64,000 bases of DNA from Acutalibacteraceae bacterium (GTDB lineage: Bacteria; Bacillota; Clostridia; Oscillospirales; Acutalibacteraceae): NCBI GenBank assembly GCA_051880695.1, contig JBJEOK010000049.1, positions 300-64,299 on the forward strand, given 5' to 3'. The notes beneath the pieces were generated by a model. The model was not told the origin of the DNA. It made no database searches and was given only the letters and a program-made list of their open reading frames with translations. This document shows positions 43,201 through 60,730 of this stretch, in pieces; position 1 is the first letter of the stretch, and every line of letters begins with the position of its first letter. The position numbers were made by a program, and so were the translations under genes.

Positions 43201-43752
43201 GTTTACTCCAACACAGGCGGTCAGGCTTCAAAGGCTTCCAACATCGGTCAGGTTGCACAGTTTGCTGCTGCCGGTAAGGACATCAACAAGAAGTCACTTG
43301 CTGAAATTGCAATGAGCTACGGCTATGTTTACGTTGCACAAATTGCTATGGGCGCAAACGTTAACCAGACACTCAAGGCAATCCAGGAAGCAGAAGCTTA
43401 CAACGGTCCCTCACTTATCATCGGCTACTCACCCTGCGAAATGCACTCAATCAAGGGCGGTATGGTTAACTGCCAGGCTGAGATGAAGAAGGCTGTTGAA
43501 TGCGGTTACTGGAATCTCTTCCGTTACAACCCCGCACTCAAGGCAGAGGGCAAGAACCCGTTCACTCTCGACAGCAAAGAGCCCAACGCAGAGTATCAGG
43601 CATTCATTAAGAATGAGGCCCGTTACACAAGACTTATGCGTGAGTTCCCCGAAAGAGCAGACAAGCTCTTCAAGAAGAGCGAAGACGTTGCAAAGGCAAG
43701 ATATGCACATCTTCTCAAGCTCAAGGATCTCTATGCTCCCGACGCAGAATAG
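40207..43752 (+). CDS. nifJ: pyruvate:ferredoxin (flavodoxin) oxidoreductase
   Basis: 1181 aa single-chain PFOR. 'CIQCNQCAYVCPHA' and 'CMGCGVCIGVCNKGA' 4Fe-4S motifs. 'GGDGWAYDIGYGGLDH' TPP-binding region. Confidence 0.97.
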   Translation: MARKMKTMDGNNAAAHVSYAFTEVAGIYPITPSSPMADYVDQWSAQGLKNIFGTKVNVVEMQSEAGAAGTVHGSLAAGALTTTYTASQGLLLMIPNMYKIAGELLPCVFHVSARCVASHALNIFGDHSDVYACRQTGFAMLAETNTQEVMDLGAVAHLASIKSRVPFLNFFDGFRTSHELQKIEVWDFDDLKEMCDMDAVEAFRKRALNPERPVMRGSHENDDIFFQNREACNKYYNAVPEIVEEYMGKVNAKLGTDYKLFNYYGAADAERVIVAMGSFNDVAEEVVDYLTAMGEKVGLIKVRLYRPFSAKHLLAAIPATCKKIAVLDRTKEPGSLGEPLYLDVVTALATNGRADIKVVGGRYGLGSKDTPPSSVFAVYKELAKDEPKNGFTIGIVDDVTNLSLPEEAAPNTAAEGTIECKFWGLGGDGTVGANKDSIKIIGDHTDKYVQAYFQYDSKKTGGITISHLRFGDKPIKSPYYINKADFVACHNPSYVEKGFKMVNDVKPGGVFLINCQWDAAELEKRLPAEAKRYIANNNVQLYTVNAIDLAAQIGLGKRTNTVLQSAFFALSKVLPAEEAIGYMKEKAQKFMKKGKEIVEMNEKAIDAGATAYVKIDVPASWADAVDGEAAAASKGAEKLVKMVDTILKPIGVMDGYSLPVSAFTEHADGTFEHGASAYEKRGVAVLVPEWDNTKCIQCNQCAYVCPHATIRPFAMDEAELAAAPAQMKKAEKPVAKTSYTYTLAVSPMDCMGCGVCIGVCNKGALKMVSKDSQIAQQEVFDYCVANVTEKPETTATITVPSSQFKKPLLEFSGSCAGCAETSYARLITQLFGDRMYISNATGCSSIWGGPAATSPYTVNKDGHGPAWANSLFEDNAEHGLGMYYGQQAIRDRLIEDVKAIVAYDGTVADVKAAGEEYLATLEDGKKNAEASKALIAALKAANADCDLCRDVLDNSEYLSKKSIWIFGGDGWAYDIGYGGLDHVLASGKNVNVMVFDTEVYSNTGGQASKASNIGQVAQFAAAGKDINKKSLAEIAMSYGYVYVAQIAMGANVNQTLKAIQEAEAYNGPSLIIGYSPCEMHSIKGGMVNCQAEMKKAVECGYWNLFRYNPALKAEGKNPFTLDSKEPNAEYQAFIKNEARYTRLMREFPERADKLFKKSEDVAKARYAHLLKLKDLYAPDAE

Positions 43753-44024
43753 TCGAGTACCTCGACACGATTGTCACGTGATAGAGTTATTTAAAAGATA
43801 ACTTTACACCGCTGAAAATAAGTTGTGGGTAACGGCAGACAGCCGATTACATCGGCGGGAATGTCACGGCCGATTACATCGGCAGGAATGTCACGGGATA
43901 GAGTTATATAAAAATAAACTTTACACCGCTGTCGAGTACCTCGACACGAATATCCCGTGATAAAATTATATTAAGGATAACTTTACACCGCTGAATATAG
44001 GTTAAAGCTTTTATAAAAAAACAA

Positions 44025-44067
44025 ATCAACCTGACGCTTAAAATAAGTGTCAGGTTGATATTTTATT
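44025..44067 (+). terminator. intrinsic terminator embedded in the repeat array (probable nifJ terminator)
   Basis: 11-bp stem atcaacctgac/gtcaggttgat, 13-nt loop gcttaaaataagt, then attttatt. The loop and inner stem are near-identical to the hairpin at 56408-56452. Confidence 0.65.
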
Positions 44068-44134
44068 CAGTAATTTAACTCTGTTGTCACGAATGATAAT
44101 TATTTAAAAATAAACTTTACACCACATAATTAAA

Positions 44135-44334
44135 GTTGTGGGCAACGGCAGACAGCCGATTACATCGGCAGGACTATCACGGGGTAAAGTTATATAAAGT
44201 CTAACTCTACACCGCTCAATATACGTTGTGGGTAACGGCAGACAGCCGATTACATCGGCAGGACTATCACGGGGTAAAGTTATATAAAGTCTAACTCTAC
44301 ACCGCTTAATATACGTTGTGGGTAACGGCAGACA
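44135..44334 (+). repeat. 90-bp tandem repeat, 2.2 copies
   Basis: Units start at 44135, 44225 and 44315 (the last truncated after gttgtgggtaacggcagaca). Copies 1 and 2 differ at only a few positions (ggc/ggt, ctc/ctt). Confidence 0.9.
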
Positions 44335-44364
44335 TGCAAAAGTTTTTTGCTTACTTTTTTGTTA

Positions 44365-54132: not shown

Positions 54133-55053
54133 ATGAAAAAAACAACTCTTGTAGTTATGGCTGCAGGAATGGGCAGCCGTTACGGCGGTCTTAAACAAAT
54201 TGAGCCCGTAGGTCCAAGCGGAGAAATTATACTTGATTATTCTGTTTTTGATGCTGTAAAAGCCGGCTTTGACAAGGTGGTTTTTGTTATCAAGCACGAA
54301 ATAGAAGAGGATTTCAAAAAAATCACTGACGGCAGATATGACAGTAAAATAGAAAGTGCCTACGCTTTTCAAAGTATTGATGATTTACCTGAGGGCTTTT
54401 CGGTTCCCGAGGGCAGAGTGAAGCCCTGGGGCACGGGTCAGGCGGTGCTCGCTTGCAAGGGTATTGTCGACACCCCCTTTGCTGTTATCAACGCAGACGA
54501 TTTTTACGGTGCTCAGACCTTTAAGCTTATTCACGATGAGCTTGTTAAAGAAAAGGACGAAAGCGATAAATATCAGTTTTCCATGGTAGGCTTCCGTGTT
54601 GAAAATACGCTTACCGAAAACGGAAGCGTCGCAAGAGGTGTTTGTCAGACAAACAGTGACGGCTTACTTACGGACATTGTTGAAAGGACAAAAATAAGCA
54701 AATCAGGCGGAAAAATCCTTTTCACAGAGGACGAGGGCAAAACCTATACTCAAATCCCCGAGGGTACAACCGTTTCAATGAACTGCTGGGGCTTTACGGA
54801 AGATATGTTAAATGAGCTTCAAAACAGGTTTTCGGCTTTTCTTGAAAAAGGAATCAAATCAAACCCCTTAAAGTGTGAGTATTTTCTCCCCTTTGTTGTT
54901 GATGAGCTTTTAAAAGAGGGCAAGGCACAGGTAAAGGTCCTTGAAACAAAGGAAAAGTGGTACGGTGTTACCTATAAAGAGGACAGACAGGCAGTCTGTG
55001 ACGCAATAAAGCAAAAAGTGCTTGACGGAGAGTATCCCGAAAAGCTTTGGTAA
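54133..55053 (+). CDS. sugar-phosphate nucleotidyltransferase family protein
   Basis: 'VVMAAGMGSRYGGLKQ' NTP-transferase G-loop. 306 aa. Confidence 0.75.
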   Translation: MKKTTLVVMAAGMGSRYGGLKQIEPVGPSGEIILDYSVFDAVKAGFDKVVFVIKHEIEEDFKKITDGRYDSKIESAYAFQSIDDLPEGFSVPEGRVKPWGTGQAVLACKGIVDTPFAVINADDFYGAQTFKLIHDELVKEKDESDKYQFSMVGFRVENTLTENGSVARGVCQTNSDGLLTDIVERTKISKSGGKILFTEDEGKTYTQIPEGTTVSMNCWGFTEDMLNELQNRFSAFLEKGIKSNPLKCEYFLPFVVDELLKEGKAQVKVLETKEKWYGVTYKEDRQAVCDAIKQKVLDGEYPEKLW

Positions 55054-55087
55054 AAAATAAATTTTGTTTGATTTTGGAGGAATAAAA

Positions 55088-55660
55088 ATGAACAGACCCG
55101 TTTTAGTTGAAACATCAGCAAGACACGTACACGTAAGCCGCAGAGTGCTTGACATCCTTTTCGGTGAGGGCTATGAGCTTACAAAGAAAAAAGACCTTTC
55201 ACAGCCCGGTCAGTTTGCCTGCGAAGAAAGAGTACAGGTTATCGGTGCAAAGGGCAGCTTCCCTGCCGTTTCCATTTTAGGCCCCGTACGTCCCGAAACT
55301 CAGGTTGAGCTTTCCGCAGGAGACGCACGTTCAATCGGAGTTAAGGCTCCCATTCGTGAGTCAGGCGACCTTGAGGGAAGCGGCGGCTGTAAGATAGTCG
55401 GTCCCAAAGGCGAGGTTGAGTTAAATGACGGCGTTATTGTTGCAAAAAGACACATTCACATGACGCCCGAAGACGCTGAAAAGTACGGTCTTGAGGACAA
55501 GCAAATTGTTAACGTAAAGGTTGACACAGACGGACGTTCACTTATTTTCGGCGATGTTATTGTAAGAGTAAGCCCCTCTTATGCACTTGCAATGCACATT
55601 GACACAGACGAAAGCAACGCCGCTTGCTGTACACCGGGTCTTATGGGCGACATTATCTGA
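55088..55660 (+). CDS. pduL: phosphate propanoyl/acetyl-transferase PduL
   Basis: Duplicated PduL motifs 'ETSARHVHVS' / 'AKRHIHMTPEDAEKYGL' and 'AMHIDTDE'. GGAGGA SD before ATG 55088. Confidence 0.88.
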   Translation: MNRPVLVETSARHVHVSRRVLDILFGEGYELTKKKDLSQPGQFACEERVQVIGAKGSFPAVSILGPVRPETQVELSAGDARSIGVKAPIRESGDLEGSGGCKIVGPKGEVELNDGVIVAKRHIHMTPEDAEKYGLEDKQIVNVKVDTDGRSLIFGDVIVRVSPSYALAMHIDTDESNAACCTPGLMGDII

Positions 55661-55669
55661 TAAAAACAG

Positions 55670-55705
55670 GGCTGTAAAAAACGAAAGTTTTTACAGCCTT
55701 TATTT
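55670..55705 (+). terminator. intrinsic terminator of pduL
   Basis: ggctgtaaaaa/tttttacagcc 11-bp stem, loop acgaaag, then tttattt. Confidence 0.75.
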
Positions 55706-55728
55706 ATAAAACCAAAAGGGAGATTATT

Positions 55729-56349
55729 ATGACAGGCAGTTTTTTTGCAATGCATTCAAGAATGAAATACATCAACCGCTGGGCGCTTATGCGCAACACC
55801 AACACCGAAAATATCAGTGAACACAGCAATGATGTGGCTGTAATAGCACACGCTCTTGCCGTAATTAAAAATCTTCGCTTCGGCGGAAGTCTTAATGCTG
55901 AAAGAGCTGCTTTTTTAGGTCTTTATCACGACATGCCCGAAACTATTACCGGTGATATGCCTACCCCCGTGAAATATCACAGTGAAAAAATGCGTGATGA
56001 ATTTTCAAAGGTTGAGCTTGAGGCTTGTGATAAGCTTTTATCCTTACTGCCCGAGGATATGAGGCAGTACTATGAGGCGGCATTTTTTCCCCGTGAGGAA
56101 GACGAATACCTTTGGAAGCTTGTTAAGGCGGCAGATAAAATTTCGGCACTGATTAAGTGTATCGAGGAAAAAAACGCAGGCAACCGCGAGTTTGAAAAGG
56201 CTCTTGAGAGCACTCAAAAAGCCATTGAAAAAATGAATTTGCCCGAAGCTGACGCCTTTTTGAAGGAGTTCATACCATCATTCTACCTGAGCCTTGACGA
56301 GGCGGTAAGTACTTCAGTCGAGTACCTCGACTCGAATATCACGGGATAA
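55729..56349 (+). CDS. HD-domain 5'-deoxynucleotidase (YfbR-like)
   Basis: 'INRWALMRNTNTENISEHS' and 'YHDMPETITGDMPTPVKY', then 'SFYLSLDE'. The last 11 codons plus the stop are encoded by a repeat element. Confidence 0.88.
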   Translation: MTGSFFAMHSRMKYINRWALMRNTNTENISEHSNDVAVIAHALAVIKNLRFGGSLNAERAAFLGLYHDMPETITGDMPTPVKYHSEKMRDEFSKVELEACDKLLSLLPEDMRQYYEAAFFPREEDEYLWKLVKAADKISALIKCIEEKNAGNREFEKALESTQKAIEKMNLPEADAFLKEFIPSFYLSLDEAVSTSVEYLDSNITG

Positions 56350-56452
56350 AGTTATATAAAAATAAACCTTACACCGCTTAAGATAGGTATTTCCAATATA
56401 ATTTTTTGGTTAGCCTGATGCTTAGATTTAAGTGTCAGGCTGACTTTTGTTT
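56317..56452 (+). repeat. solo copy of the repeat family: TAC-loop hairpin + 40-nt core + terminator-like hairpin
   Basis: gtcgagtacctcgac at 56317, core 56339-56378, hairpin 56408-56452. Collinear with 43931-44067. Confidence 0.85.
56408..56452 (+). terminator. intrinsic terminator (part of the repeat element)
   Basis: ggttagcctga/tcaggctgact stem (two G.U pairs), 16-nt loop tgcttagatttaagtg, then ttttgttt. Confidence 0.65.
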
Positions 56453-56510
56453 CCCGAGGGTAAGACCAAAGGTAATCGGGTGGTTTTTGTGAGGTCGTTG
56501 CCGACAGGCG

Positions 56511-56540
56511 AAAAAACACCGCATCGAGCGGTGCTTTTTC
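56511..56540 (+). terminator. second short GC-stem terminator-like hairpin
   Basis: aaaaaa caccgc atcga gcggtg cttttt. The stem is only 6 bp. Confidence 0.45.
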
Positions 56541-56564
56541 GCTTGGGGTTAGTCTCTTTATAAG

Positions 56565-57105
56565 CAAGGTTGTGCTTTTAAAAAAAATCAGGCTAAATAA
56601 AGGTGGACGCGAAAATTTCCGGCAAGCGGAAATTTTCTTTGGTCGGAGGTTGTGCTTCTACATTAGAGGGATATAACAGTCGGGTGGGCCGCAGCAGCAC
56701 CTTCGGTGCTGCTGCGGCGGCGGCAAGGGCGGCGGCTGCGCCGCCGCAGGGCAAGCTGAAAGCTTGCCCTAAGTCAGCGACCGCTTGCGGTCGCTGACGC
56801 CTTGCCGCCTGCAGCTACGCACCGCCGATGTCCCATCGGCGGTGCGTAGCTGCTTTCTACTGCTCACCTTACGTAGAAGCAGAACCTAAATCCCCGGCGA
56901 AAATTGATGGCACCTCCACGGGTCTGTTTTCAGAACCGAGGGGGTGCCTGAAATTTTCGCCCTACACCGTAAGATTGCATTTTACTGCCTTTTAATAAAA
57001 GCACCCACTTACACAAACCCACCTAATCTCAACCTCACTTTATCCCCAAAAGCACAACTTTGCCTCCACGTAAACAGTTAACCCGTTTATGTGGAGGCAA
57101 TTTTT
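56565..57105 (+). ncRNA. candidate large structured ncRNA (unclassified; nested multi-way junctions, GC-rich core, C/A-rich tail, own terminator)
   Basis: No plausible CDS on either strand. Many mutually compatible helices (see findings). G.U pairs in 56683-56689/56862-56868, 56909-56917/56940-56948 and the terminator stem are valid only for a plus-strand transcript. The 5' end is not defined. Confidence 0.6.
57060..57105 (+). terminator. intrinsic terminator of the candidate ncRNA
   Basis: gcctccacgtaaac (57062-57075) / gtttatgtggaggc (57085-57098), 14 bp with one G.U (plus strand only), then aattttt. Confidence 0.75.
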
Positions 57106-57150
57106 ACATATTAAGCGGTAGAAGTCAGCCTTTAAATACTAACTGTAAAT

Positions 57151-59961
57151 TTAAAACACAACCGTTGCAATAAACAAATCCCCGCTTATACTTATCTGCA
57201 GTTTAGCACCTTGTACATTACAAAGATTTTCCGCAATTGAAAGGCCTAAGCCGTTACCCTCTGTTGAACGGGAGCTGTCACCGCGTACAAACCTTGCTTT
57301 CAGCTCCTCTGCTGAAATATTCAGTGGCATTTCTGAAATATTTTTGAATATAACGTAGGCTTTACCGCCCTCATTTTTCAGTGTGACGTAAACCCTTGTG
57401 CCGTAAAGGCTGTACTTTTCAATGTTTACAACCAGGTTTTCAAAAACTCTGTAAAGGAGCTTTCCGTCAGCCTTTACAACGATGTTTTCTTCGGGAATTT
57501 CCGCAACAATGCTGAGCTTTTTCTTTTCAAGGCTGTCACTGTGTTCACCTAAAAGCTGGTTTAAAATCTCATTTAGGCTCACGTCAATAAGGTTTACCTT
57601 TATGTTGCCTGTTGACGCCTTTGACGCTTCCACCAAATCCTCGATAAGCTTTTTAAGGCGGTCGCTTTTCTCGCCTAAAACATCCAGGTATTCCTTAGCG
57701 GTTTCGTCGGTTATGCTGCAGTTTTTAAGCAGTTCAACATAATTTATTATACTTGTAAGGGGAGTTTTCAGGTCGTGAGAGACGTTAGTAATAAGCTCGG
57801 TTTTTGTCTGCTCTTGTTTGACGGCTTCATTAACGGCGCTGTTAAGTCCGTCACGGATGTTTATAACATTATCGGCACACTTTTTAAGTGAGAGGGGCAT
57901 TTTGCTCGTGTCAATGTAAACATTCATATTGCCCTGCCTTAAAAGCTCAAGATTTTTAATGATAACGCCGAGATTATAAAGGTACCTGATGAATAGAGCG
58001 AAGCAAACAATGTCAGCCGCTGCCAAAAACAGTGCAATAAGTATCGTACTGTTATTATAAATTTCTATATATGCTGCGAGGGCAAAAATACCGTTCAATA
58101 CAAAGAAGATTATACCTTTAACGAGCATTGACTTAGCAACATCTTTTACAAAGCTATACTTCTGACCTATGCTTTCGGCTTTTTCCCTGATTTTTTCAGG
58201 CCCTTTTTTGAAAAGCCATACTATAAAAATATTTTTCACAAAGCTATTGTTTTTGATATGCCTTGCGGCAAAAAGAAGATAATCAAGTACAAGCGCCGTA
58301 ATAGCTACTGCCGACACTACGGAAACTATTGATGCCAACGTGATTAAAACCGAATAATCAAAGTCCAACACATCAATATACATCATCAAACACATAAAAA
58401 TTGCAACAACTCCGCCGATTAAACTGCCGTTTATGATAAATCTTAAATCGGTAAAAATACGGTCGGTTTTTAAAAGGTGCACTCCGCTTTCACCGTTTTT
58501 ACGTCCTGCGCCTAAAAGGAGAATTACAAAGCAAGCAATAAATATTACAAAGAAAATCAGGCATATAATAAGGCTGTCTTTTAAAAGCTCTCTTGTTGTG
58601 TAAACATCGTCTATAGCTTTGGTAAATGCGTCCTCGCCGCCGGTGAAGCTTGTGTCAACAAAGAAGTAGTATTCGGTGTTGCCTTCTAAATCAACAAAGG
58701 TGCTTGCGGTTTTACCCGCTTTGTTACCGTTTACTGTTTCTGTCTGACTGTTTGTTGTACCGTAAGTATAAACAGAAGTGGTTGCATAAGTGGTAGCATA
58801 AGTGGTAGCATAAGTCACTTCCTCGGAAATTTCTGTTTCATCTTCGGTTGTAATGGGATCTGTAACAGTGGTCGGTATACCGCCGATATAACCGTCAGGG
58901 TCATCATAGTAGTAATCCTCATATTCAGAATTACTCAAATAACGGGACTCGTTTGAAAAATAAAGATCGGGTGAAACACCGTTCCTGCTCCAATATTTGT
59001 CACTGCTTGAAACCAAATATTTTTCTCTTAGCACATAAAAACCGCTTTTTGACGCTGTGTTATATATTTCATTATAGGTTATATCCTTACTTAAATCGGT
59101 GTTGGTGAAAACTCTGCCGTCAGGTGTTCTTATGAAATAAGAGGCATTTTTATATTTATTATCAAGCTCATTTTTTAAGCGCTTGTATTCTTCCTGAAAA
59201 TCCTCAAGGCTTATATATAAATTGCCGTTTACATCAAAGCCGTTAAAAAGTATACCGTATTTATTAAGGTTATCTTTTAAAGCAGCCTCATTTATTTTAT
59301 AGGTATAATATCCGCTTTCGATTTTTGTGCCGGTGTCAACGTCTTCTATGTTGGGCATAGCGATTATGCCGTCGTAGTCGGTTTTGGTTATGTTTTTCTC
59401 GTAACCCTGCGGCAAGGTGACCGCTTCGGAAAATTCGTCAAAGGGCAAGTCATATACTGCTTCTCCGTAATCACTTTCAAAGTTATAATACACATTTTCT
59501 CCGTCGGCATAAACGCCTAAGTTTTCCATTAAATCAGCATATTTAAAAATTGCGCTTAAATAATAATCCGAAAAACCGGAACGTTCACCGTTAAAATACT
59601 TAATAAGGCTGCTTTTATATACTTCATACAGTGCCGCGCTTTCGGCTTTTGCATTTGAGGCAAGCTTTTCATAGTCCTCTTTTGTGCCGTCGCCGTAATT
59701 TACCAAAAGATTACCTAAATCGGTGACATAATCATCGGTAAAAGTGTTCAAAACAGTGTTTTCTTCAACTTTTTTACGGCTGTTTTCGCCCGTGAAGCTC
59801 ATCAGTACATTATTAACAATGTCAAAATTGTTTGTTTCGTCAATTTTTTTAAAAGCACCGCAAACCTGCAGTACAATCATACCCACACTTAATAGGGCAA
59901 GGCAAAAAGCCAATACTTTCAGCCATTTGGGAGTTCTATATTTTTTCAATTCTGTATCCAA
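57151..59961 (-). CDS. sensor histidine kinase with about 430-aa extracytoplasmic domain
   Basis: 'VSHDLKTPLTSI' H-box and 'GNGLGLSIA' G2 box. One N-terminal TM, a large ectodomain, then a multi-TM block. TTG start overlaps the response-regulator gene end. Confidence 0.88.
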   Translation of the reverse strand: MDTELKKYRTPKWLKVLAFCLALLSVGMIVLQVCGAFKKIDETNNFDIVNNVLMSFTGENSRKKVEENTVLNTFTDDYVTDLGNLLVNYGDGTKEDYEKLASNAKAESAALYEVYKSSLIKYFNGERSGFSDYYLSAIFKYADLMENLGVYADGENVYYNFESDYGEAVYDLPFDEFSEAVTLPQGYEKNITKTDYDGIIAMPNIEDVDTGTKIESGYYTYKINEAALKDNLNKYGILFNGFDVNGNLYISLEDFQEEYKRLKNELDNKYKNASYFIRTPDGRVFTNTDLSKDITYNEIYNTASKSGFYVLREKYLVSSSDKYWSRNGVSPDLYFSNESRYLSNSEYEDYYYDDPDGYIGGIPTTVTDPITTEDETEISEEVTYATTYATTYATTSVYTYGTTNSQTETVNGNKAGKTASTFVDLEGNTEYYFFVDTSFTGGEDAFTKAIDDVYTTRELLKDSLIICLIFFVIFIACFVILLLGAGRKNGESGVHLLKTDRIFTDLRFIINGSLIGGVVAIFMCLMMYIDVLDFDYSVLITLASIVSVVSAVAITALVLDYLLFAARHIKNNSFVKNIFIVWLFKKGPEKIREKAESIGQKYSFVKDVAKSMLVKGIIFFVLNGIFALAAYIEIYNNSTILIALFLAAADIVCFALFIRYLYNLGVIIKNLELLRQGNMNVYIDTSKMPLSLKKCADNVINIRDGLNSAVNEAVKQEQTKTELITNVSHDLKTPLTSIINYVELLKNCSITDETAKEYLDVLGEKSDRLKKLIEDLVEASKASTGNIKVNLIDVSLNEILNQLLGEHSDSLEKKKLSIVAEIPEENIVVKADGKLLYRVFENLVVNIEKYSLYGTRVYVTLKNEGGKAYVIFKNISEMPLNISAEELKARFVRGDSSRSTEGNGLGLSIAENLCNVQGAKLQISISGDLFIATVVF

Positions 59962-60634
59962 TTCCCCACACCACCTTTATATATTTTGGATTTTTAGTGT
60001 CAAATTCAATTTTTTCACGAATTCGCCTGATGTGTACCGTAACTGTTTTTTCTGTTGAAAAGGCATTTTCATTCCACACGTTTTCATAAATCTGGCTTGA
60101 TGAAAGCGTCCTGCCCATATTTGTCATAAGGTATTCCATAATCTTGTACTCTGTTGCGGTGAGCTTTACTTCCTCGCCGTCAAGGGTGAGACTTCTCGCC
60201 TCGGTATCAAGTGAAAGACCTCCTGTTGAAATCACGCTCTCTTTTTGTGCGGCTCCGCCAAAAGAAACATAACGTCTTATCTGGCTTTTAACCCTCGCAC
60301 AAAGCTCAAGCGGATTAAAGGGCTTTGTTACGTAATCGTCACCGCCAAAGGTAAGACCTGCAATTTTGTCGGTGTCCTCACTTTTTGCAGAGAGAAAAAT
60401 TAGGGGCACGTTGCTTTTTTTGCGAATTTCCAGCGTAGCGGAAATTCCGTCCATTTTCGGCATCATAATATCCATAACGATGCAATGAACAGTCTCTTTT
60501 TGCATTATTTCAAGAGCCTGCAAGCCGTCGAAGGCACAAAGCACATTGTAGCCGTCAGCCTTGAGGTAAATTTCAATTGAACGGACAATGGCTTTGTCAT
60601 CGTCACAGACAAGCACGTTATACACATTGACCAT
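59936..60634 (-). CDS. OmpR-family response regulator
   Basis: 'VLVCDDD', 'DIMMPKMDG' and winged-helix 'IKVVWGIGYR'. Confidence 0.93.
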   Translation of the reverse strand: MVNVYNVLVCDDDKAIVRSIEIYLKADGYNVLCAFDGLQALEIMQKETVHCIVMDIMMPKMDGISATLEIRKKSNVPLIFLSAKSEDTDKIAGLTFGGDDYVTKPFNPLELCARVKSQIRRYVSFGGAAQKESVISTGGLSLDTEARSLTLDGEEVKLTATEYKIMEYLMTNMGRTLSSSQIYENVWNENAFSTEKTVTVHIRRIREKIEFDTKNPKYIKVVWGIGYRIEKI

Positions 60635-60730
60635 CTCCTTTCACTTTTTACGGTACATTTATATTGTAAAGCGGTGTTATTACAATCGGTAACTATAATT
60701 ATAACAGATTTATTACAATTTTCAAATATA

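Follow-up and report, generated by a model that had tools for sequence, protein, structure and literature searches.

Does the long gap between two convergent genes of an Acutalibacteraceae bacterium encode a large structured RNA and, if so, is it one of the known kinds? The question was raised by a first-pass annotation of a 64,000-nt stretch of this genome (contig JBJEOK010000049.1; hereafter the window), which had marked ~800 bp without a credible open reading frame (ORF) as holding an ornate ~0.5-kb RNA candidate. The gap (56350-57150, 801 nt) lies between a YfbR-like gene on the plus strand and a histidine kinase gene on the minus strand, and its Clostridia and rumen setting is as the annotation had supposed. 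The element in the gap is modelled as a half-kilobase tree of near-perfect nested hairpins in a cattle-gut Clostridia bacterium. We read it as a young, lineage-restricted and probably plus-strand structured RNA locus between two terminator hairpins, of which only the helices are maintained, and put the probability of this reading at roughly 45%.

The multi-junction fold that had been proposed is real and highly non-random. On the plus strand, the region 56560-57110 folds with -297.8 kcal/mol, compared with -175 ± 5.7 kcal/mol for dinucleotide shuffles (z = -21.6); for the minus strand the value is -310.1 kcal/mol (z = -19.8). In a sliding scan of the 64 kb (200 nt, GC-corrected), the element was the sole extreme structural outlier, with a residual z of ~-10, and elsewhere the residual z was never below ~-3.3. 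The GC content of the core is 62-67%, compared with ~40% in the flanks, and low-complexity sequence of the GCN type, self-complementary by nature, makes up much of the core. The absence of a credible ORF was borne out: a six-frame chimeric protein query gave no translated similarity in any of the six frames among 5.8 billion proteins, and 1-nt insertions in a second copy break the frame. The idea of a coding region was dropped on these grounds.

This second copy, on contig L002 of the European Nucleotide Archive (ENA; metagenome project PRJEB20456, East African cattle metagenomes), was the sole homologue recovered. It has the same gene order, belongs to the same species-level lineage and is 92.7% identical over window positions 56485-57300. 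The parts of the element are as follows.

56611-56621/56627-56637, plus strand: 5′ hairpin, 11 bp with loop GCAAG, invariant in L002.
56647-56887, plus strand: core domain, a multi-way junction closed by long-range and junction helices, with the same fold predicted independently for L002.
56647-56661/56873-56887, plus strand: long-range core helix, 14 pairs and one G.G mismatch.
56666-69/56867-70 and 56682-87/56860-65, plus strand: junction helices of the core.
56688-701/56705-718, plus strand: core hairpin, 14 bp.
56719-56809, plus strand: core sub-domain, a 10-bp helix (56719-56728/56800-56809) around three perfect hairpins.
56729-47, 56748-70 and 56773-98, plus strand: the three perfect hairpins inside the sub-domain.
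56811-30/56834-53, plus strand: large hairpin of the core, 20 bp.
56896-56905/56952-56961 and 56909-56917/56940-56948, plus strand: 3′ domain, comprising 10-bp and 9-bp helices with a 3x3 GAU/UGA internal loop between them, and an apical UUUU hairpin.
56962-57059, plus strand: C/A-rich, G-poor tail with one weak hairpin (56969-73/57008-12).
56564-79/57048-63, plus strand: outer inverted repeat, 16 nt matching at 15/16 positions, doubtful as an RNA helix.

All of the helices in the first-pass annotation are present where it had placed them, with some boundaries corrected. The 5′ hairpin, the long-range helix with its single mismatch, the 10-bp helix with its three enclosed hairpins and the 3′ domain are as it had described them. 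The hairpin given as 10 bp (56691-56715) extends to 14 bp, and the ‘perfect 19-bp’ hairpin at 56811-56853 has 20 bp. A helix does close the junction, but in a better register one position over from the one proposed: the two changes in L002 replace U.G by C-G and G.U by G-C in the 56682-87/56860-65 register, whereas one of the two breaks pairing in the register originally given. The base of the 3′ domain shares its sequence with the arms of the 5′ hairpin (GCGAAAATT / GAAATTTTC), and AGGTTGTGCTT is found within the element in two direct and about two inverted copies.

Comparison of the two copies indicated that the helices are better preserved than the sequence between them. Across the core and 3′ domain there were 7 substitutions in 252 paired nucleotides and 7 in 67 unpaired nucleotides, ~4-fold fewer in the stems (Fisher p = 0.013). 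All seven stem changes are transitions. Six of them keep pairing on the plus strand, as C-G/U.G or A-U/G.U exchanges, and the seventh, at a terminal pair, pairs only on the minus strand (binomial p = 0.06 for the strand asymmetry). The changes in the 3′ domain are U.G to C-G, C-G to U.G and one terminal G-C to A.C. Over the 163 pairs of the model, 99.1% of pair cells are paired across both sequences, with seven one-sided changes and one double-sided change (56970/57011, U-A to C-G, in the tail hairpin). The core is also more stable on the plus strand than on the minus strand in both copies: -225.7 and -218.5 kcal/mol, respectively, in the window, and -213.9 and -196.1 kcal/mol in L002. The plus-strand leaning of the first-pass annotation is thus supported by the wobble-compatible stem changes, by the 7 kcal/mol (window) and 18 kcal/mol (L002) advantage of the core and by a T5 tract at the plus-strand 3′ end.

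The differences between the two copies also point to how the helices may have arisen. In the hairpin 56688-718, the loop CTTCG of the window is replaced in L002 by CGAAG, its exact reverse complement, and GCA/TGC has been lost from both arms together (3 bp). In the hairpin 56773-98, the loop CTTG (56784-87) has become CAAG with an unchanged stem. Inverted loops with kept stems, and concerted multi-base changes in both stem halves, are the signature of template switching, which has been proposed to create and maintain perfect RNA stems and to invert loops (PMC8794818) and to generate new hairpin RNA genes, including de novo microRNA genes (PMC10710096). The element shares with such hairpins its perfect stems, exact loop inversions, concerted two-arm changes and recent lineage-specific origin. 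It differs in that the cases described are single hairpins or ribosomal RNA stems, whereas the element is bacterial, combines at least eight helices, nested into junctions, in one 0.5-kb tree and has a transcript that is inferred only. The direction and mechanism of the inversions are likewise our inference from two sequences.

We therefore propose the following. The locus, ~0.5 kb long, would be set apart from the convergent YfbR-like and kinase genes by two terminator hairpins. Template switching and slippage during replication, between the arms of inverted repeats, probably created its near-perfect Watson-Crick helices and have kept them perfect, which would explain two loop inversions and a 3-bp two-arm loss in strains ~5% apart. 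Filtering at the RNA level, on the plus strand, appears to be superimposed on this DNA-level process. The most likely product would be a plus-strand RNA of roughly 450-540 nt ending at the terminator 57060-57105. The selected property would be the possession of stable helices, giving a compact and nuclease-resistant RNA, rather than particular loop or junction sequences.

The signals that would delimit such a transcript are these.

56505-56545, both strands: left boundary hairpin, bidirectional and terminator-like, with an A tract 5′ and a T tract 3′, conserved in L002.
57060-57075/57085-57100 (element 57060-57105), both strands: right boundary hairpin, 16 bp, with T5 on the plus strand and a U-rich tail on the minus strand.
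56536-56564, plus strand: weak promoter-like match TTTTCG-17-TATAAG, the only upstream match, conserved in L002; the start would be near 56571.

The block conserved with L002 starts at 56485, the left hairpin marks its left edge, and the unit between the two boundary hairpins is ~520 nt. The right hairpin, which the first-pass annotation had called a strong terminator, has the 16-bp stem followed by TTTTT on the plus strand that is expected of an intrinsic terminator. It was passed over by a simple terminator scanner because its loop of 9 nt exceeds the scanner limit of 8 nt. Judged by its sequence, it is the probable terminator of both the candidate RNA on the plus strand and the histidine kinase gene on the minus strand. 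Its interior has a G.U pair on the plus strand in the window and G.U pairs on the minus strand in L002, where the minus-strand U tract is also improved, and this interior may have been flipped between the strains. In anatomy and in their place between convergent 3′ ends, both boundary hairpins resemble bidirectional terminators. The element differs from these in its additional ~480 nt of nested structure, which termination does not need.

The outer inverted repeat had been annotated as an 11-bp closing pair. The arms are indeed complementary, but they form the 16-nt repeat listed above, and its 3′ arm also provides the U-rich tail that the kinase gene terminator has on the minus strand. Of the three mismatches in L002, two (GC to AA at 57052-53) lengthen the minus-strand U tract after this terminator; the arm is therefore more plausibly a terminator tail than part of an RNA helix. 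The hexamer GTTGTG was not enriched across the window as a recognition motif (38 found, 32 expected).

Is the element a member of a known RNA family? A cmscan of the whole 64-kb window against all 4227 models of Rfam 15 gave no match at gathering thresholds. At E <= 10, the region 56300-57200 gave only sub-threshold single-hairpin matches to unrelated small RNA and microRNA models (best 32 bits, gathering threshold 48), and L002 gave no Rfam matches. ARAGORN found no transfer RNA (tRNA) or transfer-messenger RNA (tmRNA), and Tandem Repeats Finder no tandem repeats. The first-pass annotation had likewise seen no signatures of RNase P, tmRNA, the signal recognition particle, intron domain V or riboswitches. 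Membership of ROOL, GOLLD, OLE or raiA was rejected, there being no covariance-model match. Omega RNA (IscB/TnpB), IS110 bridge RNA and retron msr-msd were rejected because there is no partner gene, the Pfam domains of the flanking genes being unrelated. Membership in any known RNA family was therefore rejected, given the lack of an Rfam match, of partner-type neighbour genes and of a phage or tRNA context.

The suggested likeness to the large ornate classes requires a closer comparison. Like ROOL, GOLLD and OLE, and the smaller raiA, the element is several hundred nucleotides long with many helices and multi-way junctions, comes from a Firmicutes or rumen-type host and has no known function. 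Large structured RNAs are sought in long intergenic regions that are rich in GC while the genome around them is AT-rich (PMC8723152, PMC6429828), and the element lies in a region of this kind. In contrast to the many taxa that carry the known classes, the element was found in one species-level lineage. The known classes have conserved junctions, pseudoknots and tertiary contacts, whereas the element has near-perfect helices with unconstrained loops and junctions. ROOL and GOLLD are encoded in phages and prophages, often beside tRNA islands (PMC12286853), and no tRNA, phage or prophage neighbourhood is present at this locus. The placement of the element outside known families stands. Its likening to a conserved ornate class of the ROOL/GOLLD type is so far not supported, given its single lineage, near-neutral divergence, fast-evolving loops and junctions and unconserved outer helix.

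The element has a narrow distribution in the collections searched. Two Logan contigs from SRR30616850 (L001 and L015) are 100% identical to the window and end at 56537 and 56725, so that this independent short-read assembly of the same strain is broken on either side of the GC-rich hairpin core; metagenome assemblies will systematically split elements of this kind or contain too few of them. Exact-protein look-ups with the kinase and the response regulator returned only Logan contigs of the same strain. The element is absent, with no trace, from four related loci (L003, L006, L008 and L011) whose YfbR proteins are 83-87% identical and which carry other genes between yfbR and the kinase gene, namely two small ORFs, an MFS transporter gene and spoIIE. 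When the window and the related loci were searched with a covariance model of the core, no second copy was found. In blastn, 56350-57150 matched no phage or plasmid. Of five element-derived patterns searched in IMG/VR, one 18-mer matched (L005) without further similarity and was judged a chance match, and the other four gave none. A 20-mer from the 3′ domain matched the JGI metagenomes only by chance, inside a coding region (L013), and a search of GTDB genomes anchored on the histidine kinase protein found only an unrelated Bacteroidia kinase. The scans of nucleotide collections needed exact 18-22-mers, so homologues below ~90% identity would be missed, and the host lineage is very poorly sampled.

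In the nearest sampled species (L003, L006 and L008), the genes between yfbR and the kinase gene comprise a 236-aa ORF, a 44-aa ORF, the MFS transporter gene and spoIIE, none of which is present at this position in the lineage of the window. No spoIIE homologue was found anywhere in the 64-kb window. Positions 8395-8570 of L008 (identical in L006, 8386-8606) form an unrelated GC-rich (58%) three-way junction of perfect 9-10-bp helices (z = -6.2), ~90 nt upstream of spoIIE. This structure has no Rfam match, and neither the window nor L003 contains anything similar. Possible readings are a 5′ untranslated region (UTR) element or another product of the palindrome-generating process proposed above, and the clade may generate such GC-rich perfect-helix structures readily.

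Several of the results count against a plus-strand RNA locus at 56560-57110. The element differs from L002 by ~7% overall; the four-fold sites of the kinase gene diverge by 7.9% and those of the left-flank genes by 2-3%. Set against the kinase gene, the element therefore shows no overall conservation of sequence. It evolves fastest in its loops and junction strands, and two of the loops are inverted. Correction between arms at the DNA level might alone be enough to make stems better conserved than loops. The strand test reaches only p = 0.06 and becomes ~8 vs 5 if peripheral minimum free energy helices are counted, and a covariation shuffle control (364/500) was uninformative, two distinct sequences having no power. 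The partner arm of the outer inverted repeat has three mismatches in L002. A standard scan of the plus strand found no convincing sigma-A promoter, the best match being the TTTTCG-17-TATAAG sequence listed above. Such properties might be expected of untranscribed neutral DNA in which inverted repeats have been accumulated and homogenised by template switching and triplet slippage, giving a purely DNA-level palindrome cluster with no RNA and no function. We consider this the main rival, possible though doubtful. It would account for palindromes that are perfect and have spacers of 3-5 nt, for the two loops that are exactly inverted and for the joint deletion in both arms of a stem, as well as for near-neutral divergence that is fastest in loops, junctions and tail; the lack of a convincing promoter is also in its favour. 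Terminator hairpins on both sides would exclude flanking transcription, and the minus-strand fold is nearly as good as the plus-strand one (z = -19.8). The occurrence of unrelated GC-rich perfect-helix elements in nearby intergenic regions of related species (L008 8395-8570) suggests a generative mutational process in the clade. What palindrome accumulation does not readily explain is the hierarchical nesting: helices of 10-15 bp, with arms 70-210 nt apart, close junctions of unrelated hairpins, for which double-stranded DNA offers no obvious reason. Correction between arms would yield Watson-Crick pairs, yet G.U pairs are seen and tolerated. The wobble asymmetry is 6 to 1 for the plus strand, on which the core is 7-18 kcal/mol more stable, and a T5 tract follows the last hairpin on that strand. 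These features count against a purely DNA-level cluster.

Another reading is a genuine new class of large functional noncoding RNA, akin to ROOL, GOLLD or OLE and with a defined tertiary or quaternary architecture, of which the element would be the founding member and whose kin would be unsampled or too divergent. A length of ~0.5 kb, multi-way junctions, a GC content well above that of its AT-rich genome, a terminator of its own and the lack of an Rfam match all fit such a class; relatives could have been missed in a poorly sampled host lineage, whose kinase has one relative below 1e-50 among the proteins scored, and by exact 18-22-mer scans blind to homologues below ~90% identity. We nevertheless think it unlikely: the junction and loop nucleotides are the least conserved and the loops invertible, the opposite of RNAs with tertiary contacts; the helices are unnaturally perfect; the element is missing from the closest sampled species; and the phage or tRNA context of ROOL and GOLLD (PMC12286853) is lacking. 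Similarly improbable is a variant in which a transcribed large RNA of an undescribed class, a multi-junction molecule of 0.5 kb built de novo by successive template switches, is near its birth and already under RNA-level selection; diverged relatives might then exist in unsampled rumen Clostridia, and a scaffold or self-assembly role like that of ROOL and GOLLD might apply. The slightly more stable full-length minus-strand fold (-310 vs -298 kcal/mol) raises the question of a 3′ UTR on that strand, made by read-through of a leaky kinase terminator as far as the strong minus-strand terminator 56545-56505, with the structure acting as a 3′ stabiliser or roadblock for the messenger RNA of the two-component system. 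The minus-strand U tract of the kinase terminator is interrupted in the window (AGUUGUGCUUUU), and 56505-56545 reads as a hairpin followed by U6 on the minus strand. We judge this very unlikely, as the core is less stable on the minus strand in both strains, stem changes mostly make A.C mismatches there, and the kinase terminator of L002 is good on that strand (G.U pairs and a U6 run) and would block read-through. Finally, the 16-nt inverted repeat 56564-79/57048-63 could bound a non-autonomous mobile element, either MITE-like or a REP/BIME-like cluster. Its termini match at 15/16 positions, the motif AGGTTGTGCTT recurs in both orientations (two direct and about two inverted copies), and the element lies at gene 3′ ends beside another repeat family. 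Yet neither the element nor any of its hairpins has a second copy in the 64 kb or in the related loci, no target-site duplication is present at either candidate boundary, the hairpins are mutually unrelated, none of the flanking ORFs tested with Pfam is transposase-like and both strains carry the element at the same insertion site. A mobile origin is the least probable of the explanations considered, and only a slight chance can be given to it.

Further comparison with known repeats gave a similar picture. The REP elements of enterobacteria consist of one short palindrome present in many genome copies of alternating orientation. The element resembles REP and BIME sequences in having GC-rich palindromes clustered between convergent genes near terminators. 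It differs in that each of its hairpins is unique, none recurring in the 64 kb or in the related loci, and in that long-range helices nest them. No RAYT (Y1 transposase) gene was found among the ORFs scanned within 64 kb of genome. The 16-nt inverted repeat has the form of MITE termini, but there is neither a flanking direct duplication nor a second copy.

If the element is transcribed and selected, it would be a rare snapshot of a complex multi-junction RNA arising fast by template switching rather than by slow compensatory evolution, and one more orphan large RNA from a poorly sampled lineage of rumen Clostridia. If it is untranscribed, it would be a cautionary case, in which extreme fold energy, GC enrichment and tidy nested helices come from DNA-level processes; the three together would then be insufficient to prove an RNA gene.

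The most divergent segment of the element is the C/A-rich tail, with 12 changes in 98 nt. The idea that this C-rich tail is a conserved anti-Shine-Dalgarno seed was dropped on account of this divergence.

The genes, repeat and hairpin that flank the element are as follows.

55729-56349, plus strand: YfbR-like 5′-deoxynucleotidase gene, the left neighbour.
56316-56388, plus strand: repeat unit of family D2, 82% to the reference copy, overlapping the stop codon of the YfbR-like gene and outside the fold.
56408-56445, plus strand: terminator-like hairpin, 17 pairs and a T tract, 3′ of the YfbR-like gene; not conserved in L002.
57151-59961, minus strand: HisKA/HATPase histidine kinase gene, the right neighbour, followed by an OmpR-type response regulator gene.

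By Pfam, the genes of the wider neighbourhood encode an NTP-transferase, PTAC, the YfbR-like protein, the histidine kinase, the response regulator and a P-type ATPase. The histidine kinase has a large N-terminal part without a Pfam domain. Among 8000 candidates scored from the collection of 5.8 billion proteins, one relative was below 1e-50, the L002 copy (95% identical); the kinase is a fast-evolving or poorly sampled sensor. The suggestion that it is a Cas- or TnpB-like effector was dropped, its only domains being HisKA and HATPase.

The repeat unit at 56316-56388 belongs to a family of ~73-90 nt found at gene 3′ ends, with members at window positions 43751-44362, 56316-56388 and 57107-57131 (minus strand) and at 2227-2416 of L002. 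The array 43751-44362, which follows a pyruvate:ferredoxin oxidoreductase gene, has several tandem or overlapping copies (5-6 according to the repeat finder) and includes a hairpin resembling 56408-56445. The 125-aa ORF beside it was considered as a Y1 transposase and rejected, being thioredoxin-like. The array has no Rfam or plasmid match, and its consensus-box pattern is absent from IMG/VR. The YfbR-like protein has 206 aa, compared with 194-197 aa in its homologues, and so the unit 56316-56388 appears to supply its last ~10 codons. The copy at 57107-57131 is partial, inverted and just past the kinase stop codon, and each copy is oriented with its upstream gene. The unit contains a small hairpin that covaries between copies (GTCGAGTACCTCGAC vs GCCGATTACATCGGC), a AGTTATATAAA...TAAC hairpin and a conserved YTACACCGCT box. 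The family could be REP-like or a 3′-UTR element. Its copy number differs in L002. Identity to L002 is 98.4% on the left (54179-56313) and 95.8% on the right (56485-60655), and the repeat and terminator zone between them (56316-56485) may be a recombination boundary.

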